The notes under the pieces: model-generated
The model's database searches: none
What the model saw: only the letters and a program-made list of their open reading frames with translations
Told to the model about the DNA's origin: nothing
IMG/VR virus record: IMGVR_UViG_3300037991_001546
Span: 1-34,443 of that record
Length of the DNA stretch: 34,443 nt
Reading direction: 5' to 3' (one strand)
From: a virus
Taxonomy: Duplodnaviria > Caudoviricetes
Translations under genes and position numbers: made by a program
Part shown: positions 1 through 20,636 of the stretch, one piece after another
How positions within the stretch are numbered: position 1 is the first letter of the stretch
Layout of the letters: every line of letters begins with the position of its first letter

Positions 1-78
1 ACGTTGTATGTTACATTTGTTAATGAGAACAAAACTGGTGGTCTTATTAGATTCTACCAAGAGTTGTTGTCACAGTAA
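1..78 (+). CDS. 3' end of a putative ubiquitin-like (beta-grasp) protein with GG motif and C-terminal extension (5'-truncated)
   Basis: Frame 1 reads TLYVTFVNENKTGG-LIRFYQELLSQ* (GG at 37-42, TAA 76-78). A hydrophobic strand followed by KxGG is typical of Ubl C-termini. It lies directly upstream of the E2-like, JAB and E1 genes. Not in the ORF track. Confidence 0.65.
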   Translation, partial: TLYVTFVNENKTGGLIRFYQELLSQ

Positions 79-85
79 ATAAGTA

Positions 86-134
86 GCAAGTAGGGTGGTA
101 AGTTGATTAGGGGCATGACTTACCACACCCTTGC
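86..134 (+). other. intergenic stem-loop between the Ubl-like and E2-like genes
   Basis: GTGGTAAGT pairs perfectly with ACTTACCAC (9 bp), and the outer GCAAG (86-90) pairs with CTTGC (130-134). No U-tract. Confidence 0.55.
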
Positions 135-176
135 ATAATAGTTAATTTAAAAAAAGATAGTAGGAGAAAACAAAAT

Positions 177-2552
177 ATGAACCTAATTGAAAGATTCAAG
201 CAAGGTGGGATTGATACCTACTCATATAGTATGGACACTATGAAAAGAATGTTTACAGGTGAACAAATATCTAAAAGCATACTTGATGGTCCACAAAAAA
301 TACTTATGGAGAAAATCAATCAATTCAATAATGATTACATACGTACACGTTATTTGAATAGAAACAGAAGCATGTTAGAACCATTAGAAGATATTGGCTT
401 AACTGACAAGCTTAATTGGAAACGTGGTGTCACTAATACACTAGAAAAACTATTTGTTGAAAGAATACTACAGTTTGGCAAAGGTGGTAGTGTAGACTTA
501 AAGTTTGTGAGAAGACCAAACAATAGTGCATACCTAGGTGATCGAGCACGTAATGACTTAGATAGTGTCTGTAGAAGTCTAAAAAGAGTTAAAGACATGA
601 AAGGTGCTTGGAATGATACTGAAGAACGTAAAAAGCTAGAAGCATTTATTGACTTGTGCTTAGATACGTTCTTTAAAAACATTGATGAAGCAAATAATTA
701 CTTAAAAACTGTAAAAAGTATGCAATTTCTACCATATATTGTTAGCCTAAGAACAGGAAACAAAGAAAACATGATAGAAACGCCTACTGGATACAGAACT
801 GGTAAGTATTGGAGTGCATTAGATACATATAGTAGTTTACATAGAGAGTTAATTGTAGCATTACATATTAACAAACCTGATGTTAAGTATTATAATAGAG
901 ATAGAGAACACGTAGCAGATATTAGATCTGCACCTGTTACTTTGTTGTTTAGGTATCACATGTCATCTATGGTACAATGGTGGGTTAATTTATACTTTAA
1001 CTTGTACAAAGAAGATGGTAGTAACAATGAAATGATTGCTAATCAATTAGTTACAAACAATAGATCAATACCTAGAATGTTAAATGCAGATCCGTCAGTT
1101 TTGTGGGAAGGTGCTACTTACAGAGGTAGCCGTGGAAGTGATGAGCTTAACATAGAATACTTTAGAAACAGAAAAGCATTAGATGTTTCGTCTATATACC
1201 ACAATTACATGAATTCTACTGAGTATCCTTACATAGGTAGTCAAGATGGTTCTGGTTCTAAATACACATCTCTAAGTACAAAAGGATTTATGGAAAAACT
1301 ATTTAAAGACGTAGATAGTGACATAGATTACAGGCTTTCTCAAAGACTAATTGAGAAAAAGTATGGACATAGAGGCAGAAACCATGAACATATATATAGA
1401 TTGCAACATGAGTTACCTAGAAATCAATGTTTTGGTGACTTAAATGGTGAGATATATAACTGTGCTTCAACAGGTAACTTTATAGGTATGGTACCTTTAA
1501 TATCTAAATGGCAACATTACATAGAAGGTAGATCTAATCCACTACAAGGATTAAATAATTTACCACACATAATAACTACTGACTGGGACAGAACTATGAT
1601 TAGAAAAGTCGTAGGAAGTATAGATATTATGCGTAAAAACCACTTACTACAAAATGGTTTATGTTTCCAGTTAAATCACAATGTATACTATAGTGACTTT
1701 ATTAATCATGAAGCAGCATTTGGTGACATTGTAAGTATGTTAGATTACCACGCAGGAAATAACAATGAATTTATGTTTGATGCTAGAAACTGTGTAAGTA
1801 TGATAAAACATCAGTATCAAAAGTATGCTAATCAACAAGTTCCTCAGGACTTCGTAGAAACTACTAACTTTGATGGTTACTTTAATTACTCATATGTAAG
1901 AAGTAAACGATACGAGTCAAACAATATTGGATTGCACTCTGATAATCCAGAATGTATGTACAATACAGAAGGATTTAATGAACGATTTGTAACAGAGTTT
2001 TGTTTAGAAGCATACGATGAAAACTATGTTAAGGAAAAACAAAGAAGTCTAAAAGACATGAAATTAGCACTTGCAAACAAGTTAACTTCAGAGATGGAAG
2101 ACAAAGACGAAGCTTATGATGAATACTTAAAAGAGCTTCGTAGAATAATGTCTCCTGAAACATTTCCTGTTCAAGATAGATACGGCAGAAATGCAATGTT
2201 AACGTTGTTAGATTACTACACTTCTTGTAAACAAACATTAGATGAAATACACGAAGATGGTTTATTGACTGAAGAACACTCAAGTTCTTGGGAATCTATA
2301 AATAGATTTCATGATATAAACTATGATAAGTACGAAACATTTGAAATGTTTATAAGTGAAGTAATTAAATGTTACGTAATACCTAACATAGAAATTGTTG
2401 AAGAGCAAGTATCACAAGATATAGTAAGTGATACTATTGATGCTTTAATAGAACAACAAGAAGATAATTCTACCAACGGAAGATACGACTTTAGTACAGA
2501 AGAAGGTAGAGCATTATGGGCTCAACACATTAGGAACAGGAGGTCTAGATGA
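177..2552 (+). CDS. large hypothetical protein with candidate prokaryotic E2/UBC-like domain
   Basis: 791 aa with an AGGAG RBS. YPYIG (aa 350) and QCFGDL (Cys418, nt 1428-1430), followed by amphipathic helices and W..Y....SNP, recall the HPxI...CxG core of E2-like folds. Stop overlaps the JAB start. Confidence 0.5.
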   Translation: MNLIERFKQGGIDTYSYSMDTMKRMFTGEQISKSILDGPQKILMEKINQFNNDYIRTRYLNRNRSMLEPLEDIGLTDKLNWKRGVTNTLEKLFVERILQFGKGGSVDLKFVRRPNNSAYLGDRARNDLDSVCRSLKRVKDMKGAWNDTEERKKLEAFIDLCLDTFFKNIDEANNYLKTVKSMQFLPYIVSLRTGNKENMIETPTGYRTGKYWSALDTYSSLHRELIVALHINKPDVKYYNRDREHVADIRSAPVTLLFRYHMSSMVQWWVNLYFNLYKEDGSNNEMIANQLVTNNRSIPRMLNADPSVLWEGATYRGSRGSDELNIEYFRNRKALDVSSIYHNYMNSTEYPYIGSQDGSGSKYTSLSTKGFMEKLFKDVDSDIDYRLSQRLIEKKYGHRGRNHEHIYRLQHELPRNQCFGDLNGEIYNCASTGNFIGMVPLISKWQHYIEGRSNPLQGLNNLPHIITTDWDRTMIRKVVGSIDIMRKNHLLQNGLCFQLNHNVYYSDFINHEAAFGDIVSMLDYHAGNNNEFMFDARNCVSMIKHQYQKYANQQVPQDFVETTNFDGYFNYSYVRSKRYESNNIGLHSDNPECMYNTEGFNERFVTEFCLEAYDENYVKEKQRSLKDMKLALANKLTSEMEDKDEAYDEYLKELRRIMSPETFPVQDRYGRNAMLTLLDYYTSCKQTLDEIHEDGLLTEEHSSSWESINRFHDINYDKYETFEMFISEVIKCYVIPNIEIVEEQVSQDIVSDTIDALIEQQEDNSTNGRYDFSTEEGRALWAQHIRNRRSR

Positions 2553-3409
2553 GCGAGTTTAATATGAGTGGTAAAGATTGGGATAAAATCATTAACTACT
2601 CACACATAGCATGGGAGAAAGATAAATCTGAAATTGGTGGCATGATGATTGCTACTAAGGAAGGTAATGACTTTCTACTCAGTGATCCAGTTATACTAAA
2701 ACAGCAAGTTAGTGGAAGTAATACTGTACTAGATAAAGAAGCTTTAGCACAATATTATGGTAAAACAGCAATTAAGAATGCTGGTAAAGACATAATATTT
2801 GTATGGTGGCATAGTCATCATACTATGGCAGCTTTCTGGTCAGGCACTGACTTAGCAACTATTGACACTACTAAATCTGGTAGTGTCAGTATGTCTTTAG
2901 TAGTTAACTTGAAAGAAGAGTACTTATTTAGAGTGAACTTATGGGAACCAATAAAGGCACATAAAGATGTTAGTATTAACATTATAAGGCCTGAACGTAA
3001 AATACCTAAATCACTTTATAACGAGTATGATAAACTAGTTAGTGATATAGTAGTCACTAGGAAAGTAAATAAACCTAAGTTCAAGTATCAATACAACAGA
3101 ACATACAACCATCACTACAAATGGAACGACTTTAATAGTTTTCCTGACTTAAGTGATGATGAATATGTAGATGTAGAAGCTAAGGTAGATGATATGCTAT
3201 CTTTGTTTTATGTAGGTGAATTAGGTTACAAAAAGCTTAAGAAGCAAATTACTACTCTAAATAATAAACTTGCTAAAGATGATAGTGAGTTAAGAGTTGA
3301 ATTGCCTGCTAAGCCTATATTAGAAAGTGTAATAAAAAGTGGATACTTCGACAGACACGGAGCTTCTAAGTTAATAGTGTGTAATACTCAAGGAAAATTA
3401 CCATTATGA
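2549..3409 (+). CDS. JAB/MPN (JAMM) metallopeptidase, prokaryotic JAB family
   Basis: N-terminal EIGG glutamate plus WWHSHHTMAAFWSGTD, an exact HxH-x7-S-x2-D JAMM motif. About 130-aa C-terminal extension. Confidence 0.9.
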   Translation: MSEFNMSGKDWDKIINYSHIAWEKDKSEIGGMMIATKEGNDFLLSDPVILKQQVSGSNTVLDKEALAQYYGKTAIKNAGKDIIFVWWHSHHTMAAFWSGTDLATIDTTKSGSVSMSLVVNLKEEYLFRVNLWEPIKAHKDVSINIIRPERKIPKSLYNEYDKLVSDIVVTRKVNKPKFKYQYNRTYNHHYKWNDFNSFPDLSDDEYVDVEAKVDDMLSLFYVGELGYKKLKKQITTLNNKLAKDDSELRVELPAKPILESVIKSGYFDRHGASKLIVCNTQGKLPL

Positions 3410-3684
3410 AAGAAACATTAGCATACGATAAAAATCGTAATCCACTTAAACAAACAAAGTACCAATCTAAAGAATGGCCATTCAAAACAAAGAAATCTGC
3501 TACAAAAGCATTTGCTGAGTTTGAAAAGATCTATGGTCGTGGATGGTACTATTACGAGGGTTGGAATCCTGCTACATACAAGGAATTACCTTGGATAACA
3601 AGATTTCACCCTGATTACAAACTGTATTTAGCTTATAATAGGAGGAAAAAGCGTGAAAGACAGGTACGAAGGGATAGTAAATAA
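3406..3684 (+). CDS. hypothetical basic/aromatic protein within the Ubl operon
   Basis: 92 aa. ATGA overlap with the JAB stop; overlaps the E1 start. Confidence 0.7.
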   Translation: MKETLAYDKNRNPLKQTKYQSKEWPFKTKKSATKAFAEFEKIYGRGWYYYEGWNPATYKELPWITRFHPDYKLYLAYNRRKKRERQVRRDSK

Positions 3685-4330
3685 CTATCACAAATATACC
3701 TATCATATACTAGGTTGCGGTGCTATTGGTAGTGCCGCAGCTACTCAACTAGTTAGGATGGGTGCAACCAACATAGTCTTGTATGATATGGACACAGTTG
3801 GTGTAGAGAACATTGGTGTATCACAGTACAATACCAAGGATATTGGATTATTCAAAACAGCAGCACTAACAGAACATTTGCTATTTATTAATAGTGATAT
3901 AGACGTAGAACAAAAGTGTGGAAGATTTGATGCAAGTATGTGGTCTCCAAGACAAAATGCTACAAACGATGTAGTAATATTAGGTTTTGATAGTATGGAA
4001 GCTAGAAAAGAAGCTGCCGAAATAATACTAAAGAATGATAATCCAGCAGCTATGATAGATGGTAGAATGGGTGCTGAACATTATCACCAAATAGTACTTG
4101 AAAAACCAACATTAAGTAAGTATATTAAGCACTGGTATAGTGACGAAGATGGTGATCCAGAACCATGTAATGCAAAAGCTACAAGCTATTGTAGTAACAT
4201 GTCTGGTAGTTTTATCTCAGACACTATAAAGAAATTACTTACGGATAGTGTTTACTATAAAGAGTTATCATTTCACTTTCCTAGCTTAACAATGCGTAGA
4301 GCAGGATTAGTAGATAATAGTAAACAATAG
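3653..4330 (+). CDS. ThiF/MoeB/E1-family adenylyltransferase (Ubl-activating enzyme)
   Basis: ILGCGAIGS Gly-rich loop, YDMDTVGVENIGVSQ, conserved K, GFDS, DGRMG, and PC (EPCNAKAT) as candidate catalytic Cys. GTG start with AGGAGG RBS. No CxxC zinc pairs. Confidence 0.92.
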   Translation: MKDRYEGIVNNYHKYTYHILGCGAIGSAAATQLVRMGATNIVLYDMDTVGVENIGVSQYNTKDIGLFKTAALTEHLLFINSDIDVEQKCGRFDASMWSPRQNATNDVVILGFDSMEARKEAAEIILKNDNPAAMIDGRMGAEHYHQIVLEKPTLSKYIKHWYSDEDGDPEPCNAKATSYCSNMSGSFISDTIKKLLTDSVYYKELSFHFPSLTMRRAGLVDNSKQ

Positions 4331-9475: not shown

Positions 9476-9544
9476 ATGGAATTAATATTTGTATTTATAC
9501 TATCAGCTATAATACTTTGGGCAGTAAGTAGGTACTTAAAATGA
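9476..9544 (+). CDS. small membrane peptide (22 aa)
   Basis: AAGGAG RBS. MELIFVFILSAIILWAVSRYLK*. ATGA overlap with groES. Confidence 0.6.
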   Translation: MELIFVFILSAIILWAVSRYLK

Positions 9545-9801
9545 AACCCTTACGTAATGAAGTTATAGTTAAAGAGATAGTCAAAGAATCTAAAACTGAT
9601 TCAGGTATTATATTAGAAGACGACTATCACACATCTAGAGATAAAACAGTTACTGCTACAGTTACACACGTTGCAGATGCAGTTAGATCTGTAAAAGTAA
9701 ATGATACAGTACTTATTTATTCTGGTGGTTACAAACAAAATATCAATAATGAGGAATTAGTGTTTATGGACGAATCTGAAATACTAGCTGTATTACTATG
9801 A
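9541..9801 (+). CDS. groES: co-chaperonin GroES (Cpn10)
   Basis: MKPLRNEVIV...KTDSGIIL mobile loop...VKVNDTVL...ESEILAVL. Confidence 0.9.
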   Translation: MKPLRNEVIVKEIVKESKTDSGIILEDDYHTSRDKTVTATVTHVADAVRSVKVNDTVLIYSGGYKQNINNEELVFMDESEILAVLL

Positions 9802-10094: not shown

Positions 10095-13000
10095 TTAAAC
10101 GTCTTCAGCCTCTAAATTAGCTTCTATTTCGTCTAATTCAGTCTGTGCTTCAATTTGATCACGTCTTAAACTATGTATTCTATGTAATGGTATACCAGTC
10201 ATGAAGTCTACAGCCATAGCAGGACTTTGATACGTTCTATATAAATCTCTACCTAATCTACCAAATGGAAAATATGTTGCAAGTTGGAACTTATAAAAGT
10301 TTTCATAATCACCATTCAATATAGAAGTTATAGGAGGCAATATAAATCTTGCAACTGGTGGTGTAACAATTTGTAATGGTGCTAACACTTTACTAGGATA
10401 TTGATTAAAGAAAGCACGATCACGTTCTTCTGTATCACCAAACATCAATTGTGCAGTATCTTGCATCCATGACATTGGTGGTGATAAAGAATATTCAAAT
10501 ATACTAGCTACAAATATGTTAGCCATGGCTAATGCAAATAAATCAAAAGATACTTGTCTTTGAAATCTTTTACTTGCTATCTTAGTGTAATCAAAACCTA
10601 CATCTTTAGCATTTCTGTATATATCCATTCTTCTTCTAATACTATTCCAAGCATAAGGCTGGAATCTAGTAAGTACTCTACCTAAAGAAGTATTAGCAAA
10701 ATTAGGTCTTTCAGTAGCTTGATACAAGAACTGTGAAGCTTTAACACCTTCAAGAGAAAGTTTTATTAATCCAGGATTATTGAAAGACATTTTACTAGAA
10801 AATCCATCAGGAGTATTTAAAGTATTTTGTAAGTGAAATATCATGTGTGATAAGAATGTAGTACCTCTTAAGTGTCTTTCTGACTCTCTCATAAAGAAAG
10901 CACCCATATCTACAATAGACTCGTCAACTTTATATTCACGAATAAGATCCATCATAGTAGCATCTCTTAGTCTATCTCTACTTGTTTTAGTAACCATGTC
11001 ATAACCAGAGTTTCTAGCATCCATAAGTCTTTCACCAAACTCTTTTACTACCTTAAATGCATTCTTACGACCAAATACTTTTTCTATAGCTACTAATTGC
11101 AACTGAGTAGTATCAAATACACCAACACTACCATCCATCCAATTGAATATATCTTCTCTGGTTGTCATAGTTTTCTGTTCAATTTTTTTAGTGTCTGCAT
11201 TAAAAAACTCATATTTAGCAGTTTCCATTTGTCCAGTATCTTTGTTATACTCTCTAAATATGTTATTTAACATCCACTCAGTATTAAAAGACTTTCTTAC
11301 AGGATTTAAACCAACATCTGTAATTAAATTAGTATAACCACCTATAAAATTAGTAATTGGTGTTTTAGGTGCTGACAACAAACTAATTAATTCGTACTTA
11401 CCTTCTAAATTACTTAAGTATCTTAAGCCCTCATTCACTTGAGTTCTTTTTTGTGCAGGATCACTAGACAATTCACCAAATAACTTTGCACCAAATGCAT
11501 CATTAATAGTTTCCATTTTACGACCTACAGCATCATCACTAGTCATGTGGTATAAACTACCATATTTACCAGTTGTGTTGATTTGTGACAATAGCCGCTT
11601 CGCATTACGATTTATCTGCTTTATATACTCTGCATTGGCTTTAGTAACATTACCTCTATTTGACAAAAGGATGTTCGTCTTTTTTTGTGGAGATAACTCT
11701 ACTGCTTCTCTAAAATCATAAACTAAATCTAATTCTGCTTTTAATAAATTTAAACCTTTCGTTGAAAATTTATTATCTATAAATCTTTGATATAAAGGTA
11801 TATGTTTTTCTTGTATTCCATGTGTCTGTAAAGATCTATGTAAACTTAAACCCATCATGTTTAATCCAGCATCTCTTAAATACCCAGACCAACCTAATGC
11901 ATTAATATCATTTTCTACATTATTTACTTTATCAAATCTTTTTACAATAAGTTCAAGATTAATACCAGTAGTATTTGTTAAATGAGATTTTACTAAACCA
12001 CCAGCATATCTTCTTAATGCTTCTACATCCAATCTATAAAAAGGCATAACATAAGGACCTCTTTTATGCATATTACGATATGTATAATCTCCAATATATC
12101 TACTATCAGAAAGTTTATCTCTAGATAATAAATCATTTACTGTTATTTCATTAGCCATTTGTCCTTCTAATGCTGAGTTCATAAACTCTCTATTTTGTAA
12201 AGAAAGTTTTTCTGCTCTATATAGTTGTTTAGCCTCTGTAAAATTCAAAGGTCTACCTCTTTCTAAATCAGTAATTAACATTCTATTTGCAATATGTTCA
12301 GGTAGTTGAGATTTATCTGTTATAGTTTCCATTTCAGCATTTACTTTTCTAGTTAATTCTCTTTCAATTTTTTGAGCATTTTTAGAAATATCAGTATGTC
12401 CTACTCTAGGAAAATAACCTTCAGTAACTTTGTTTTGAAACAATTCTTTATAACTAGAATTTTTATTTAATCTATTTATAACTCTTTGTTTTAATTCTTT
12501 CTTTATTTTTGTAGGTAATTTTTCTGGTTTTGATAAGTCATAATTTTTATAAATTCCTTGCATTTCATCTCTTAATTTTAAATGATGTTTAAAAAATAAC
12601 ATATCATTATAAGATGGCATTAAAAACTGTGAAATCTCTCTGTTGTTAAATTGTCCTTCTATACTAGATCTTTTTAAACCACCTTCTCTAGTAGTATATG
12701 CTCCTTGATAATTCATAATAGAATCAAAGAAAGCTTTATATCTATCTTCTCTAAATATTCCAGTATTTTTATCTAAAAATATTTCTTCAAGTTTCATCAT
12801 TTCAAATTCTCTACCAAATGTTTTATCTGTTTTGAGTCTTTTAAATTCTTGCCCTGGTTTCCAAAGTTTAAAATCTTTATTCCAAGTACCTATGTGTAAA
12901 AAAGTTTCTTTAATATTTTTATGTCTAGATGCTATATAATTATCGTATACCCAATCTGTAAATGTTTTAATATCTTTTTTTAATTGTTGTGAAACAAATA

Positions 13001-16000
13001 CACTAGGTTTAACATTTTTACCTTTAAATTCTATTCTAGCTCCAGATTCATCTAACTTCTGAATTAATGCTTTAGATTCATTGTATTTTGTTTTTATATA
13101 ATTTTTACTTTCATAATCAATTTTTTCACCAGCTGGATATTTACCATTATTCCATTCTAAACTATTTACAGCATGTTCTTCAAGTAATTTTCTATGTTCT
13201 TGTAACGTAGCATCATCTTTTGTTAAATATTTAAACCAACCAGCATGTACTTTTTCTATATTATCTCTAGCTGCTTTTGTAATAGTGTCTGTAAAGTCTA
13301 CATGATTTTTCATTAAATGTAATGGTGACATAGGTTGTTTCATATATTCTGCTTTAATTTCACCGTTAGCCATCATTTTATTTTCTAGTATAGGTTGTAA
13401 TTCTAATTCACTCATAAATCCTAATCTATCACCTACTATGTCATAAAAATACATATGGTCTCTACCACGTGGTTTTTCTTTAAACTTACCATCTTTAGTT
13501 ATTAAATCTTTCATAGGAGTAAAAGATCTTTTTAATTGTCCTATAAAATTAACCATATCTTTACTATCCATAGTAGAAATATCTCTCATTACACCTTCAC
13601 CTTTTTTAGTAAATGCTGCAAAATAATAATCTAAATTAGGTAATACTTGAGGATATTCTTCTAATATTTTTCTAAATTCTTTTAATACAATTTCATTTTC
13701 AGGAGTAGTAGGCTCTAATATATTTTTATCTAATCTTTCTAGGTATTTATGTTGATCTTTAAAAACTCTTTTAATTGTTTTAACTGCTTGTTCTTTTTCA
13801 GTATTAGGATCTCGTTTACTTTCTTTAAACTTTTTAGCTAAATCTTTACGTGTTTCATTAGCTATTTGTCTTTTAGATGTTTTAACACCAAATAAACCAT
13901 CTACATCACTTATTATAGTTTCACCTATTTTTTTACCACTGCTATCGTTAATAACTTTAATTTTTACTTTTTGCTTTTGTATATCAGCTTCAACTTCTTT
14001 AGCTTTTTTACGAACTATTTTAGGTTGATTCATTGTATTAATATCAAGTATTTGATCTCCAGAAAAACTTTCTGTTAATGCTTCTATGTATGCTTGCGTT
14101 TTTTTAGGTACACGCATTTTTTTATTCATAGCCTCTAGGCCTTGTTCTATAATACCTTTTTTTAAATCTAATAAAGCTTGTCTATTTTCTGGAGTTACAA
14201 CTTTTGATCTGTCAAAAAACGGAACCCTATTGTATAATATAGCTTCTGCTTGTTCTCTTTTTCTTATCCATCTTTGCATCAATTCTGGATTTTGAGTAGC
14301 TCCCATTTTATTTGTATCATAATCTTTGTAAGAAACTTCAACTACTTGATCTTTATTTAAATTTTTAGTTGTTCCTTCTATAAATCTATTAGCATCACTT
14401 ATTATTTTAAACAACTGTTCTGTTGTTTTATTTTTCATTTCTTTAAATCTAAATCTAGGATTTGCTGATAAATATGAATCTATAATTAAATCAATATCTT
14501 TTATAAAAGGTTTATATGCTGGAACTTTTCTATATCTAGCACGTATTTTTAATAGTTCTTGATTAACCCATTTATAGTCTAATTTACCTCTTTCTACATT
14601 AAAGCCACTTCTATCTCTAAATACATTAGCACTATAGTAAAAAGATTCTTTAATACTATTTACTTGGGATTGTATATCTTTTACTAATGTAAATGCTTCA
14701 TCAACGCTTAGTTCTGTCATTCTGCTTTTACCTACTTTAGTAATAAATACATCAGATACATAATCAGCTACATTTAAATCTAAAGCATTGTGAAAATGTT
14801 GCTCTATGTTTCTAGTAGGAGTTAATGCTAAGGTGTTATATTTTTTATCACCAATAGCTTTTAATTCTTTAAATAAATGATTACCAGGTCTTTTTAAAGA
14901 ATATATAGCATCTATTTCATTTCTATAACCAGGTATTAATCCATACTTATCATAGTATTTACTATTTAATAATCTAGTATTTAATTCTGTAGTCATTTGT
15001 AATACAAAATCATATGGCTCTATAGCATTAGTATTTAAATGATCAAAACCTCTAGAAATAGATTTAATATAATCGAAAGACTGTATTCCCCAATCCATTC
15101 TAGAAGAAAGTTTTTGTGCTACATTATATGTTTGCAAGTCGTATCTAAAGTCTGCATTATTTACAAACTCATTTATAACTCTAGGTGAATTGTTTATTTC
15201 AGCAATAGTAGGTTGACCGTAAAGTAAATGATATGTCTCTGCTAAATTTTCTAATTCTCTTATTTTTGTTATATCAATATATTTAGTTTTCTTTTCTCTT
15301 GTTACTGGCTTTGTTCTTCTAGAAGAGGTTGCATCTCCCCATGAAATTTCTGATAATTTACTTACATTTTCAAAAACACCTTTTTCATTTTGAACTTGTA
15401 ATTGAAAATATCTACTCCAAGTTAATTCACTTAATGTAAAATTGTCTGGTACATTTAAATATTTAGGACTATCAGCATATCCGTTTTTAGCTTTTAAAGA
15501 TTCTACTTCAAATTGCTTTAAAAGTTTAAGGTAATCTTGTATATTAGTAGAGTTCATAATATTACCTTCTCCGTCTTTTAAAACTATTCTATGTTTTTTA
15601 ATTCCATCGTAATTTTTGTTAGTGTTTACTTCTACTAACATATAAGGAACTTCTCTTGAAGGTTCTGTAATTTTAGTATTAATAATTGCATCCATAACTT
15701 TTATTTGTCTATCTAATGCATTTACTGCACCACCCATAGCTTCTTTACCTATAAATGCACTTCTACCAGCCTCTATTCTTTTATATGGATCTATAATGTC
15801 TTTTAAAACGTCATTAGATGTTTTTGGTGCATACTCTACAAAGTATCCTAAATCTGTTAAAAACTTAGGAGGCGTTTCTAAATTAATTAAATTACCTTTT
15901 TCATCTCTTAAATAATCTCTATTATTTCTAAATTCTTTATTTAATTCTTTAGGTATATTATAATGTACAAATGCTTCGTCAAAATCATTATCTGCACCAT

Positions 16001-19000
16001 CCATGTAAAACTTTTCTTTTGCATTTACATATATACCTATACCTGGTTTATCAACAAATCCACCAAATTCAGGAACTCTAGCACCACTTACACCACTATT
16101 AGGAACACGCAACAATGTTTGTTCATTTAATACATTTTTAATATTTATTGCTTCTGTTTTAGTTAACTTAGTTAAACGTAACATATCCCAAGCTTGCCCT
16201 AATGTTTTTATAGCAGGTATTCCTTCTACTCTAACAGGTTTCGATCTAGCATCTCTACCTAACATCCATGCATTTTCACCAACACCAGTTGTTATTTTAT
16301 TAGGACCTTGATTTTCTCTACGTTGATGCACAGACAATTCTTCTGCATTTAATCCCATTAAAGGTGCTTGAAATCCTTGTGGATCTCTAGGTTTAACATT
16401 TCTAGTTACTATAAATCTAAATAAAGCTTTGTTTATGTAATCTTTATAAGGATGTCTACCAAAAACAAGAGGATCATAATTGTTCATGTTTAATATTTCA
16501 GAAATCTGATAATTTTCTTGAATAGCTTCTCTCATTGCTGAGTTTTGTCCAGGCTCCCACATAGCAGTACTTAAATCATTTTCATTAGCTTCTACTATCT
16601 TTTTTAATACTTTTTTAAATGTAGGGTTATTTATACCACCTCTAGTAGTATCATTTTTCATTTCTATAATTACTTCTTCAGGAACTCTAAAAACATCAAA
16701 GTCACGTGTTATTTCTTTTCCAGACCTAAAACTATTTATTAACTCTATACCTAACTGTGGATCTCCTTCATTACTACTACGTATCCACTCATTAACTTCT
16801 CTATCTAAATTTTCTGCACGTGTTGGGTCTTCTGTTCTAATTTTTGCCATAGAAACAGAATCGTATAATTGTTTACCAGGACTTATTCCTTTATTAAAAT
16901 GTGAAGAATCTTCTCTTACACCTAAATCTATATAAGTTTCATTCCAATTATAGTCTACTACTTCCTTTGGTGTTAATGGTTTATCTGTATAATACTCACC
17001 TTTTTTAGCATCCCATTTCAATTCTACGGCATTAAAATTACCTTTATTTGTTTTACCACCAGATTCATAAATAACGTGATGTATAGGAAATCCTCTTTGC
17101 ATTTGATCAAACATCCATTTGTCTAAAGCTTTACTTGCAATTTCAGAACCTATTTTATTTTTAAGTAAATTAACTCCGTTTCTAGGACCTCTAAAAAAAG
17201 TTAATTTCATTTTACCGTCTGTTTTATCTATGTAATATCTATTTGCCATAGATTTAAATACGTCAGATCTAACACTATGAACTGAATCAGTATTACCAAG
17301 CATTATTTCACCATGTACTTCACCTGGTATATCTTTTAAATAAACTACTCCCATTTTTTGTTTAGAGTCTGTTATTCTGTGATCTTTAGCATTCATAGGT
17401 ATATTAGTACCTATATCCATAGCTGCGTATTTATTATACTCTACTACATCTTTATAATTTAATTTTTGATTATTATTAGCACGTAATTCTGCTATTCCAT
17501 CTAAAATATTATCTACTTTTAGTTTACCATGCCCCTTTAAACCTCTTAAAGTGTGCTCTCTTAGCAAGTAATAGGTGTTAGCCATATATACCTGACGGTT
17601 TGTTTCTGTTATGTTCTTAAAACCTATTTTTTCTAATATTTTTATTTGATCTGTTCTAGATAAATAATTAGTCTCATTAGGGAATTTATCTTGTATTGGC
17701 AAAGGTTCTACTAAAACTACTCCTTTATCTTTCAAAGCTTTAGAAACATAGAAACCGTCTTTTATAAGCTTTGTATTTATAGCATCTAATGCTTTTTCAT
17801 TTAATGTAAATTCATATTCAGCTTTACCACGTGAATCTAGTTTAGTTCTATAACTATGAGTTAAAATTTTATCGTATTGTAATTTATATATACCTGGAGC
17901 ATCTATACCTAGTTGTTTTTTGCTAAACATAGTACCAGTACGTTTATCATACTGAACGTCTGATATAACATAAGACACATCTTCTATAGTACCTTTTACA
18001 TGTTTATCGTGTTTATTTTCACTTCTGTATTTAACTAATATAGTTCCATCTATATCTTCACTAGGAAATTTTTGTTTACCAAAACCTTCTTTAGAAGTAT
18101 ATCCCCCTTTAAAAGGATTTAAATCTTGAATACCATGGTCTGTTTGTTCTTCTAAATTCTTTTTTATTAATAAGCCTCTACCTAATTCTTGACGTATATT
18201 TGTAGGTAAAGTAATTCCATATTTTTCTATTTTTTGAAAAAACTCTATATCAGTTTTTGCTTTTTCTGCAATATTGTTTAAATCTAATTTAACTTTTGTG
18301 TAATCTAATTTACTGTCATTATTTAATAAATAGTTAATAGCAGTTTCTAAAGGTCTTTTTAATATTGTTTTAGATGACTGCTCAGAAGAAACAGCTTCAA
18401 TATTTTCATTAGCCATTGATATTTCGTTTTTATAATCTCCTAATCTTTCTTGTGCAAAATCTTTTGTATTTTTAGGTTGTTTCGGTATAGAAGCAACTAC
18501 TTCATTTGGATTATCTACATTTGCATCAAAAACTGGTTTTTGTACAGTTCCTTCTAAAGATTTGTCTACTACATAATCAACATAGTCTTCATAGTTTTTC
18601 CAAGTTTTATTACCTGGTACTCTATCATTACCATGTCCTGCAATATTTAATGTAGGTTTTTTACCTATTTTTTTTGTTACATCTTCTATAAACTGACGTA
18701 ATTGTTTTGCTTCAGCATCTGCTCTTTTTTTACTTGTTAATCCTTTTGTAATAATAATATGAGGTTTAAATCCTGCCATAAACCTACCACTAGACAATGT
18801 TTGTGACGATGAACCATTTTTCCATATACCTTCAGAAGCATAACCTATTGTTCTGTTTGTACCAGCACTTTTATCTATATGTTCTGGTCTTGCAAAAATT
18901 ACAGTTGCATCTGTATTCTCTATGTTTCTTATAGTTCTATTAGCATAATCTTCTGGAGCAAACTCTCTATCACCTCTTTCTGTTCTTCTAGTAATAGGTT

Positions 19001-20636
19001 CTGTAACTCTTTCAACTCCATAATCTTTTACTAATTTATCTTTAGCTTTTTTAGATCCAGTAATTTTTGTTTTAAAATCAGACGTTACAAATCCACCAGT
19101 TTTTATACCTTTACGTTTAGCAGATTTTAAACCTCCATAATCAGCACCAGATTGCATACCTGAAAATATAGATTCTACTATAGTGCTTTTAGTTTCTATT
19201 CCAGCATTTTTATTATATATTTTTTTTACAGTTTCTTGTTTACCTTCACCTATTTCAGGAGCCTGTACATTAACACCTTCTTTTTTTACTGATATTTTTT
19301 TAGGAGTTTTAACTTTTTCTTTTATATGCTCTGCACGATCTATTATAATTTTATCTTCTACACTTATAGGTTTAGTTAAATCTATATTTCTTTCTGCAGC
19401 TATATCTTTAACAGTTTGAGATACTTGTTGCATAAAACTAGGTTTTTGACTATTTATAACATTTAATTGTTGAACTCTAACAGAGTCTAAATAACTATCT
19501 ATATAATCTCTATCTACTTTAGGTAACGATTGGTACTCTGGATCTTTTCTCCATTTTTCTTTTACTGTAGTTATGTTTTCATTGCTAGGAAAATATCTAT
19601 CATTAATAAATTTAGTTCTATTCATAAACCCAGCAGATTTAGCTGAAGCACCAAAGAAGAAACCTAATAGATATTCATATATTTGATCTGGTAATGGTGC
19701 CCCTCTTAATGTAGTCATACCACCTTGAAAAGATGCCCCTAATGTACCTTTAATAAGCATTTCTACAGCTTCGTATTTATTAGGGTCTTGATATAATTGT
19801 CTTGAAGCTAATTTTACAGCTTCTCTACCCATTTGTACTGTGTCTTTATTACGTAACATATCACCAATACGTACATAATTACCTATACTACCAAACACAG
19901 CTCCTGCTGCTGCACCGTGCATAGTAGCATCTAACATAGCTTTAGGGCCTTCTTTCCAAGAAGATACTCCTAATGCTACACCTAAATGAACTGCTTGTGT
20001 TGCTGCATTTCTTACAGAAGCTTTACCAAATAATCCTTTTGTTAAAAATCCTTTACTTAGCAATGCAGTAGATCCTATAGCACTTTGTGTTTGTTCTAAA
20101 ACTTTATCAGCAACCATCATAGGTACTGATTGTAAAGCAAATGTGTTAGGTGATATTTCTTTTCTTAATAAAGGAGGTGCTTTAGATGCAACTTTAGATA
20201 TACCTTCTCTTACTGCTTTACTACTTTGTCTAGCTGCTTGTTTTGCTTGTGCTATAGGTATCCATCTACCACCACTTATAACACTAGCAATAATATCAGG
20301 TGCAAAACCTAATAAGTGACCAAACTGATTTGCTATTCTTTCTGATGTAGTGTCTGCTTCTTCAGCCCAACCTAAGGTAGTAAAACCTTCTACAACACCA
20401 GAAGTAAATTGATTAACTACAGATAATATATTTGAACCAGACTTATCAAGATCACGATTCCACTTAATATCATATTTTTTATGTTGTTTTTCTATATAAT
20501 CAAGATCTTCTTCACTAAAAAGATTAGGTTTCATACGATAAGAAGTATCTAATCTTTTAAGATATTCTTCTGGATTAATTATACCAGTAGTTAATAGGTT
20601 GTCAATATAACCTATCTGTGTATTCGTTGTTGCCAT
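10095..20636 (-). CDS. giant virion (ejection) polyprotein with cpYpsA/SLOG domain and two-barrel DNA-dependent RNA polymerase
   Basis: 3513 aa. SLOG motifs SGMQSGADYGGL...TGG, Y..RT..NI..TDATVIF, S.GT..T and LNIAG (about aa 490-680). RNAP-like motifs TD, K...K, SGGK, LLRVP and GADNDFD (aa 1549-1553 = DNDFD). Helical C-terminus (RP......GR...F..Y) like large ejection proteins. Last gene of the structural block. Confidence 0.75.
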   Translation of the reverse strand: MATTNTQIGYIDNLLTTGIINPEEYLKRLDTSYRMKPNLFSEEDLDYIEKQHKKYDIKWNRDLDKSGSNILSVVNQFTSGVVEGFTTLGWAEEADTTSERIANQFGHLLGFAPDIIASVISGGRWIPIAQAKQAARQSSKAVREGISKVASKAPPLLRKEISPNTFALQSVPMMVADKVLEQTQSAIGSTALLSKGFLTKGLFGKASVRNAATQAVHLGVALGVSSWKEGPKAMLDATMHGAAAGAVFGSIGNYVRIGDMLRNKDTVQMGREAVKLASRQLYQDPNKYEAVEMLIKGTLGASFQGGMTTLRGAPLPDQIYEYLLGFFFGASAKSAGFMNRTKFINDRYFPSNENITTVKEKWRKDPEYQSLPKVDRDYIDSYLDSVRVQQLNVINSQKPSFMQQVSQTVKDIAAERNIDLTKPISVEDKIIIDRAEHIKEKVKTPKKISVKKEGVNVQAPEIGEGKQETVKKIYNKNAGIETKSTIVESIFSGMQSGADYGGLKSAKRKGIKTGGFVTSDFKTKITGSKKAKDKLVKDYGVERVTEPITRRTERGDREFAPEDYANRTIRNIENTDATVIFARPEHIDKSAGTNRTIGYASEGIWKNGSSSQTLSSGRFMAGFKPHIIITKGLTSKKRADAEAKQLRQFIEDVTKKIGKKPTLNIAGHGNDRVPGNKTWKNYEDYVDYVVDKSLEGTVQKPVFDANVDNPNEVVASIPKQPKNTKDFAQERLGDYKNEISMANENIEAVSSEQSSKTILKRPLETAINYLLNNDSKLDYTKVKLDLNNIAEKAKTDIEFFQKIEKYGITLPTNIRQELGRGLLIKKNLEEQTDHGIQDLNPFKGGYTSKEGFGKQKFPSEDIDGTILVKYRSENKHDKHVKGTIEDVSYVISDVQYDKRTGTMFSKKQLGIDAPGIYKLQYDKILTHSYRTKLDSRGKAEYEFTLNEKALDAINTKLIKDGFYVSKALKDKGVVLVEPLPIQDKFPNETNYLSRTDQIKILEKIGFKNITETNRQVYMANTYYLLREHTLRGLKGHGKLKVDNILDGIAELRANNNQKLNYKDVVEYNKYAAMDIGTNIPMNAKDHRITDSKQKMGVVYLKDIPGEVHGEIMLGNTDSVHSVRSDVFKSMANRYYIDKTDGKMKLTFFRGPRNGVNLLKNKIGSEIASKALDKWMFDQMQRGFPIHHVIYESGGKTNKGNFNAVELKWDAKKGEYYTDKPLTPKEVVDYNWNETYIDLGVREDSSHFNKGISPGKQLYDSVSMAKIRTEDPTRAENLDREVNEWIRSSNEGDPQLGIELINSFRSGKEITRDFDVFRVPEEVIIEMKNDTTRGGINNPTFKKVLKKIVEANENDLSTAMWEPGQNSAMREAIQENYQISEILNMNNYDPLVFGRHPYKDYINKALFRFIVTRNVKPRDPQGFQAPLMGLNAEELSVHQRRENQGPNKITTGVGENAWMLGRDARSKPVRVEGIPAIKTLGQAWDMLRLTKLTKTEAINIKNVLNEQTLLRVPNSGVSGARVPEFGGFVDKPGIGIYVNAKEKFYMDGADNDFDEAFVHYNIPKELNKEFRNNRDYLRDEKGNLINLETPPKFLTDLGYFVEYAPKTSNDVLKDIIDPYKRIEAGRSAFIGKEAMGGAVNALDRQIKVMDAIINTKITEPSREVPYMLVEVNTNKNYDGIKKHRIVLKDGEGNIMNSTNIQDYLKLLKQFEVESLKAKNGYADSPKYLNVPDNFTLSELTWSRYFQLQVQNEKGVFENVSKLSEISWGDATSSRRTKPVTREKKTKYIDITKIRELENLAETYHLLYGQPTIAEINNSPRVINEFVNNADFRYDLQTYNVAQKLSSRMDWGIQSFDYIKSISRGFDHLNTNAIEPYDFVLQMTTELNTRLLNSKYYDKYGLIPGYRNEIDAIYSLKRPGNHLFKELKAIGDKKYNTLALTPTRNIEQHFHNALDLNVADYVSDVFITKVGKSRMTELSVDEAFTLVKDIQSQVNSIKESFYYSANVFRDRSGFNVERGKLDYKWVNQELLKIRARYRKVPAYKPFIKDIDLIIDSYLSANPRFRFKEMKNKTTEQLFKIISDANRFIEGTTKNLNKDQVVEVSYKDYDTNKMGATQNPELMQRWIRKREQAEAILYNRVPFFDRSKVVTPENRQALLDLKKGIIEQGLEAMNKKMRVPKKTQAYIEALTESFSGDQILDINTMNQPKIVRKKAKEVEADIQKQKVKIKVINDSSGKKIGETIISDVDGLFGVKTSKRQIANETRKDLAKKFKESKRDPNTEKEQAVKTIKRVFKDQHKYLERLDKNILEPTTPENEIVLKEFRKILEEYPQVLPNLDYYFAAFTKKGEGVMRDISTMDSKDMVNFIGQLKRSFTPMKDLITKDGKFKEKPRGRDHMYFYDIVGDRLGFMSELELQPILENKMMANGEIKAEYMKQPMSPLHLMKNHVDFTDTITKAARDNIEKVHAGWFKYLTKDDATLQEHRKLLEEHAVNSLEWNNGKYPAGEKIDYESKNYIKTKYNESKALIQKLDESGARIEFKGKNVKPSVFVSQQLKKDIKTFTDWVYDNYIASRHKNIKETFLHIGTWNKDFKLWKPGQEFKRLKTDKTFGREFEMMKLEEIFLDKNTGIFREDRYKAFFDSIMNYQGAYTTREGGLKRSSIEGQFNNREISQFLMPSYNDMLFFKHHLKLRDEMQGIYKNYDLSKPEKLPTKIKKELKQRVINRLNKNSSYKELFQNKVTEGYFPRVGHTDISKNAQKIERELTRKVNAEMETITDKSQLPEHIANRMLITDLERGRPLNFTEAKQLYRAEKLSLQNREFMNSALEGQMANEITVNDLLSRDKLSDSRYIGDYTYRNMHKRGPYVMPFYRLDVEALRRYAGGLVKSHLTNTTGINLELIVKRFDKVNNVENDINALGWSGYLRDAGLNMMGLSLHRSLQTHGIQEKHIPLYQRFIDNKFSTKGLNLLKAELDLVYDFREAVELSPQKKTNILLSNRGNVTKANAEYIKQINRNAKRLLSQINTTGKYGSLYHMTSDDAVGRKMETINDAFGAKLFGELSSDPAQKRTQVNEGLRYLSNLEGKYELISLLSAPKTPITNFIGGYTNLITDVGLNPVRKSFNTEWMLNNIFREYNKDTGQMETAKYEFFNADTKKIEQKTMTTREDIFNWMDGSVGVFDTTQLQLVAIEKVFGRKNAFKVVKEFGERLMDARNSGYDMVTKTSRDRLRDATMMDLIREYKVDESIVDMGAFFMRESERHLRGTTFLSHMIFHLQNTLNTPDGFSSKMSFNNPGLIKLSLEGVKASQFLYQATERPNFANTSLGRVLTRFQPYAWNSIRRRMDIYRNAKDVGFDYTKIASKRFQRQVSFDLFALAMANIFVASIFEYSLSPPMSWMQDTAQLMFGDTEERDRAFFNQYPSKVLAPLQIVTPPVARFILPPITSILNGDYENFYKFQLATYFPFGRLGRDLYRTYQSPAMAVDFMTGIPLHRIHSLRRDQIEAQTELDEIEANLEAEDV

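Follow-up and report, generated by a model that had tools for sequence, protein, structure and literature searches.

A phage gene cassette for a candidate ubiquitin-like conjugation pathway in uncultured marine phages

Genes of the cassette and their products

The DNA analyzed here, referred to as the window, is the whole of a 34.4-kb IMG/VR virus record (IMGVR_UViG_3300037991_001546, 34,443 nucleotides; Duplodnaviria, Caudoviricetes), and its left end carries genes for a ubiquitin-like protein (Ubl), a 791-aa protein with an invariant cysteine, a JAB/JAMM metallopeptidase, and a ThiF/E1-type adenylase, together with one small open reading frame (ORF). The original prediction, made from the letters of the DNA, had placed a same-strand run of such genes in the early region of a phage, upstream of replication genes, and both points hold: the frame 1-78 and the ORFs 177-2552, 2549-3409, and 3653-4330 lie on the plus strand, where early and replication genes extend to ~9.8 kb, and the structural genes lie on the minus strand. 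Profile scans of the window identified a primase-helicase, a resolvase, an endolysin, and a tail fibre, and a near-identical longer contig from IMG/VR (45.5 kb), with two amino-acid differences visible in the 791-aa protein, places a terminase upstream of the cassette. The features are as follows.

1..78, plus strand: 3' end of the Ubl gene (open frame, residues 71-95 and stop)
177..2552, plus strand: 791-aa candidate E2-like protein (ORF; E2 label from motifs only)
2549..3409, plus strand: JAB/JAMM metallopeptidase, 286 aa (motif and profile)
3406..3684, plus strand: 92-aa basic ORF (no Pfam or PHROG match)
3653..4330, plus strand: ThiF/E1 adenylase, 225 aa (Pfam ThiF)

The last genes had been described as overlapping each other; JAB and E1 do not, but each overlaps the 92-aa ORF coupled between them. 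This basic, Trp/Tyr-rich ORF is limited to the window's own clade (79-92 aa) and is not a core part of the cassette.

The window opens inside the Ubl gene, and the leftward extension that had been proposed as a check was supplied by the 45.5-kb contig, in which the whole gene (L004:5615-5902) encodes 95 aa; the same protein is present in L001 and in L095, the latter an independent metagenome contig. The two glycines (residues 83-84, window nt 37-42) are followed by an 11-residue tail, LIRFYQELLSQ; the KTGG motif noted earlier is therefore present in the open frame but is not a C terminus, and the Ubl is a precursor rather than a GG-ended peptide. The predicted model is a beta-grasp, the fold anticipated for this ORF, with which the structure matches (best, MoaD and ThiS) and the MoaD profile (E 7e-4) agree. 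In the related loci, 21 Ubls need no trimming, yet the intact JAB is kept, which argues that the peptidase serves reversal or release. Other Ubls carry extensions of 38-60 residues past the GG (L042:674-1111, L043:3007-3444, L145:78-458, and L152:2-304), which are possibly small proteins freed by the JAB.

The JAB gene overlaps the 791-aa gene via ATGA, and its product contains the intact JAMM motif that had been reported (E28, H88-S-H90-x7-S98-x2-D101), with a match to Pfam Prok-JAB (E 7.6e-5) just under the cut-off. Relatives at E <= 0.001 numbered 1,527 among 7,995 scored candidates. When the window protein was aligned with 115 of 120 listed relatives, E28 was invariant and H-x-H-x7-S-x2-D was present in 116/116 sequences, the C-terminal half being less conserved.

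The E1 gene starts with GTG downstream of GGAGG and encodes a minimal single-domain protein of 225 aa that matches Pfam ThiF with E 1.7e-20. Its R4, G21-x-G23-x2-G26 loop, D45, K68, D113, C172 (nt 4166-4168), and C180 are invariant, together with D47, N53, R118, and R138, across the 96 E1s of the loci retrieved, and the CxxC zinc site occurs in 0/96. In a wider alignment to which crAss-like, Flavobacterium, Xanthomonas-phage, and PRTRC E1s were added, C172 was found in 10/11 rows but C180 was not kept, which makes C172 the catalytic candidate and gives a position to the candidate catalytic cysteine of the original prediction. In a tree of 36 rows, from which ThiF, MoeB, and BilD were left out, the 19 family members form one clade (support 100/99) that adjoins the E1s from crAss-like and Flavobacterium phages (98/90 for the joint group) and stands apart from 4 PRTRC and 7 E2-fused host E1s. 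A related E1 also lies directly after an 892-aa hypothetical gene in the 227-kb Xanthomonas phage PhiXhv-12 (L190:2238-5612).

The 791-aa protein begins with an N-terminal helical domain (~10-145), which is followed by a beta-meander domain (~146-470) carrying YPYI (350-353), C418 (nt 1428-1430), W445, and PLQ (455-457); its C-terminal half is helical and variable. Its relatives are 400-835 aa long, and at 50% identity the proteins that match the core domain fall into 368 clusters. C418 is invariant (85/85 and 131/131 sequences, in overlapping sets), as is P455 (131/131), and W445 is present in 125/131; the spacing from the cysteine to PLN is 36-38 in 85/85 big proteins, and that from HP to the cysteine ranges from 14 to 70 among the same 85, the window's being among the longest. 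We take this HP..C..PLN arrangement to be comparable to the motifs of UBC domains. In the predicted model (predicted local distance difference test score 70, core mostly > 90), the order is helix, beta-meander, motif, cysteine, and two helices, in agreement with the E2 description in Iyer 2006. In the Atlas comparison of a shorter relative, the nearest family was Prok-E2_D (features 0.89, structure TM score 0.44 over 134 residues), a match under the bar and from a poor model. In addition, a four-Cys C-terminal cluster (C...C-x2-4-C-x4-6-C) is found in 94/131 big proteins. Of the original description, the Cys-containing 791-aa protein stands, and the E2-like label gains from the invariant cysteine, the HP(Y/F)I and PLN motifs, and the Prok-E2_D lead, whereas a UBC fold was not demonstrated by fold or profile searches; on balance, this protein is probably an E2-type carrier.

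Conservation across phages and relation to known systems

The set is conserved in more than 100 related loci. A JAB-pattern scan matched 359 stretches of viral DNA and at least 496 from metagenomes, the best 80 of each being kept, and an exact-pattern scan of prokaryote genomes, which detects close relatives only, returned 1 locus in 185,579, on a 3.9-kb contig. For the 139 distinct JABs, an E1 lies immediately after the JAB wherever the DNA reaches far enough (109/109), and the big gene directly precedes the JAB in 96/110; the 14 misses comprise 1 start-call artefact, 3 genes further upstream, 6 cut by a contig end, and 4 loci where the gene is missing from its place. Of the 94 complete big genes, 88 have a Ubl with them (64 adjacent and 24 elsewhere in the locus), and 4 of the 6 lacking one have < 750 nt upstream. 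The synteny in relatives that had been named as a check is thus found, and the cassette is real and strongly conserved, with three well-supported components and one plausible, unproven E2. In L052, L076, L077, and L148 the cassette is rearranged, its Ubl lying downstream of either the big gene or the E1. The carriers are a large, abundant family of uncultured marine phages, in which recombination, replication, terminase, and portal genes recur as neighbours of the cassette.

The same gene order is found in crAss001 gp79-gp76 (L188:1241-5651), in other Steigviridae, and in Flavobacterium phages FpV4/Fpv1-21; besides L188, the loci from cultured crAss-like and Flavobacterium phages that show it are L005, L006, L189, and L191. 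There, within the replication block, a small-domain gene is followed by genes for a ~430-aa Cys/His protein, an MPN/JAB protein, and ThiF, annotated only as hypothetical, metalloprotease, or thiamine biosynthesis. In these phages, the first gene encodes 200-290 aa with a conserved K-S-G after a ~90-residue N-terminal domain and is not a free GG Ubl. Profile links to the crAss-like Ubl and big-protein counterparts were not significant, and in BFVD the big-protein model had weak matches to two crAss-like proteins (E 1.3 and 1.9), of which one is equal in length to the cr128_1 gene in the big-protein position. The E1 homology to crAss-like and Flavobacterium phages is firm, whereas the other genes are linked mainly by position. 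In Yutin 2021 (PMC7886860), the available main text does not contain "ubiquitin," "ThiF," "MPN," or "JAB," and a supplementary gene map marks ThiF and MPN in the Beta group but does not interpret them. Because crAss001 and the Flavobacterium phages are cultured and share the gene order, the cassette idea is testable there.

Sets of Ubl, E1, E2, and JAB had been described as host systems in the original prediction, which is too strong, since mobile-element cassettes were predicted in Iyer 2006 and crAss-like and Flavobacterium phages share the gene order. The available part of Iyer 2006 covers bacterial and mobile-element operons and a phage tail Ubl-JAB pair. The phage cassette would work like Bil, yet it is not a member of Bil, Bub, PRTRC, or CBASS (cyclic oligonucleotide-based antiphage signaling system). 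As far as the available portion of PMC10557695 describes it, Bil has the same four functions in the same order (BilA Ubl, BilB E2, BilC JAB, and BilD E1), its Ubl is likewise a precursor trimmed by the JAB, and an E3 is absent, the chemistry working without one (PMC10557695 and PMC11601596). The window shares a beta-grasp Ubl with a conserved Gly before a predicted cleavage tail, and a JAB/JAMM peptidase, but differs in E1 architecture and in location: the Bil E1 has an inactive adenylation domain, a CYS domain, and a zinc site, none of which is seen in the single-domain phage E1, and Bil is a host antiphage operon, whereas the present cassette is phage-encoded (359 viral stretches against one prokaryote-genome locus). 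The E2 candidate, 400-835 aa and multidomain, is also unlike the Bil E2, and neither the Ubl nor the big protein matched a PADLOC model.

Similarly, the PRTRC or type 6d operon of Iyer 2006 (Prok_Ub, Prok-E2_D, JAB, and ThiF) has stand-alone genes for a Ubl, a JAB, a small E1, and an E2-like protein, and its Prok-E2_D is the nearest named family, under the bar, for the big protein's domain. On the other hand, the PRTRC models gave weak hits that fell well short of their cut-offs for the JAB (PRTRC_A, 17.3 versus 101.8 bits) and the E1 (PRTRC_ThiF, 31.3 versus 144.75 bits), and PRTRC E1s form a separate clade. ParB was absent from the 30 window ORFs and from 54 of 84 recurring neighbour clusters scanned (the remainder being clusters of the cassette itself and probable shadow ORFs); the accessory helical proteins had no dedicated model search. 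Bub, which is also a bacterial set of Ubl, E1, E2, and JAB, is described in the available part of PMC11601596 as having Ubl-E2 and JAB-E1 (or E2-E1) fusions, a Cys-less E1, oxyester chemistry, and BubE, none of which is seen here, where the four genes are separate, the E1 cysteine is invariant, and DUF6527 has no match. Type II CBASS was rejected, as no CD-NTase, effector, or Cap2 E1-E2 fusion was present in the window or its neighbours; the hits to PADLOC E1-E2 models are confined to the adenylation part. A ThiS/ThiF or MoaD/MoeB relay was rejected as well: the best NCBIfam matches of the E1 are ThiF models below cut-off (best 75 versus 159 bits), CxxC occurs in 0/96, and linked synthase or sulfur-donor genes were not found in the window or the neighbour families scanned, although the host could supply partners. 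Nidhogg virus carries ThiF/E1-like genes with a proposed role in ubiquitin-like modification in a prokaryotic virus (bioRxiv 2021.07.29.454249), but these are described as using host Ubl and E2, and a viral Ubl-E2-JAB set is not in the available part of that account. Our literature search found no paper on a phage-encoded Ubl-E2-JAB-E1 cassette, although subscription literature was largely uncovered and a prior description is possible; the available part of PMC11354881 contains nothing on one.

Proposed mechanism and alternative explanations

We put at about 60% the probability that the four genes constitute a self-contained, phage-encoded pathway for ubiquitin-like conjugation in which the 791-aa protein is the presumed E2-type carrier. 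Observed directly are the four genes and the way they stay together, a beta-grasp model for the Ubl, an unbroken JAMM motif in the JAB, and the ATP residues retained by the E1; the steps that follow are proposed. In such a pathway, the JAB would cut after Gly84, removing the 11-residue tail; the E1, probably as a homodimer, would adenylate Gly84 and load the Ubl onto Cys172 as a thioester, from where it would be handed to Cys418 of the big protein. The extra N- and C-terminal domains of the big protein, which are the fastest-changing part of the cassette, would choose the target and make a separate E3 unnecessary, the Ubl would be joined to a target lysine by an isopeptide bond, and the JAB may also take the tag off again. 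The cassette lies between small early genes and the recombination/replication genes, which suggests that it acts early, and tagging would most likely fall on host proteins, in takeover or counter-defence, which is the weakest step.

Several observations weigh against this pathway. The residue before P351 is His in 96/131 relatives and Tyr (350) in the window protein, in which the full C-terminal Cys cluster is missing, as it partly is in its clade. When the full-length model was searched with Foldseek and VIA-align, no E2 was matched, and the PDB and the Pfam, NCBIfam, and PADLOC profiles gave nothing for the big protein (Pfam, 0 of 85 members); hhalign probabilities stayed < 2% for Prok-E2_D (0.8-1.4%), for Prok-E2_B, and for the crAss protein in the corresponding position. 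The Ubl is nearer to the MoaD/ThiS sulfur carriers than to ubiquitin, its GG conservation is partly by construction (the GG ORFs behind its profile were chosen by hand), and the loci were fetched through the JAB motif. Canonical E1s bear an arginine in their SNLxRQ motif; the window E1 has ENIGVSQ at this position, the arginine being missing, as it is in crAss-like E1s. Finally, two independent contigs (L034:1375-3377 and L119:1503-3683) show Ubl-JAB-E1, with a Ubl ending at GG and no big gene between, and a big-gene match was not found in the 57%-complete record of L034; their close relatives L027 and L115 carry the big gene.

These three-gene loci favor E2-independent conjugation, in which the Ubl, JAB, and E1 core tags directly, as in archaeal sampylation and urmylation, and the big protein is a target, an adaptor, or an unrelated Cys enzyme. 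L121 and L174, without a big gene directly upstream of the JAB, the MoaD/SAMP-like Ubl, and the unproven E2 fold point the same way. However, the big gene goes with the cassette in ~100/110 loci, even after a change of gene order, its product has exactly one invariant catalytic-type residue, set in an E2-like context, and the contigs without it are incomplete; direct tagging thus appears rather unlikely.

The resemblance of the Ubl to MoaD and ThiS would also suit a sulfur-carrier or small-molecule pathway, in which host sulfur would make the Ubl a thiocarboxylate, its maturation or release would fall to the JAB, and the big protein, its Cys cluster being a metal or Fe-S site, would use this carrier in modifying a nucleotide or a metabolite. 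Sulfur relays assisted by a JAB are known (Iyer 2006), the best NCBIfam matches of the E1, below cut-off, are ThiF models, and the four-Cys cluster is widespread (94/131). Against this, the absence of sulfur-transfer and cofactor genes claimed for the window was upheld in the 30 ORFs scanned; rhodanese, desulfurase, ThiG/MoaE, and thiouridylase domains were found neither there nor in the 54 neighbour families; the E1s have no CxxC zinc site; and the window's clade has partly lost the Cys cluster but kept C418, making a sulfur role improbable. Least credible is a decoy or counter-defence role, with phage enzymes mainly stripping or soaking up host Bil/CBASS-type tags and their own conjugation vestigial: host Bil tags phage structural proteins (PMC11601596, available part), so a lone phage JAB could be useful, but hundreds of divergent proteins retain the catalytic residues of all four parts, and the E1s fall into a clade made up of phage sequences only, separate from the E1s sampled from hosts.

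Bacterial ubiquitin-like conjugation has so far been characterized as a weapon of the host against phage (Bil and CBASS) or left untested (PRTRC). If the conjugation pathway is real, it would represent a new class of phage host-control tool, offer a model of minimal E1-E2 chemistry with a 225-aa zinc-free E1, and give a new function to the genes labelled "thiamine biosynthesis" in crAss001 and Flavobacterium phages, which are open to genetics and proteomics. A broader proposal, which we hold only tentatively, is that tailed phages, from the marine family to gut crAss-like phages, run a complete ubiquitin-type pathway in which a multidomain E2-E3 hybrid with fast-evolving target recognition reversibly tags host proteins during takeover.

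Other genes of the phages

Elsewhere in the window, a phage-encoded GroES co-chaperonin (9541-9801, plus strand), which is also present in L003, points to a bacterial host. The region 10095-20636 on the minus strand encodes a 3513-aa protein that is probably either a virion component or ejected, and its residues 490-602 match a cpYpsA SLOG-family domain (E 6e-8). A spore-photoproduct-lyase-like gene (Pfam SPL, E 2e-22) lies 3' of the replication genes in L066 (12297-13157) and in 8 other loci.
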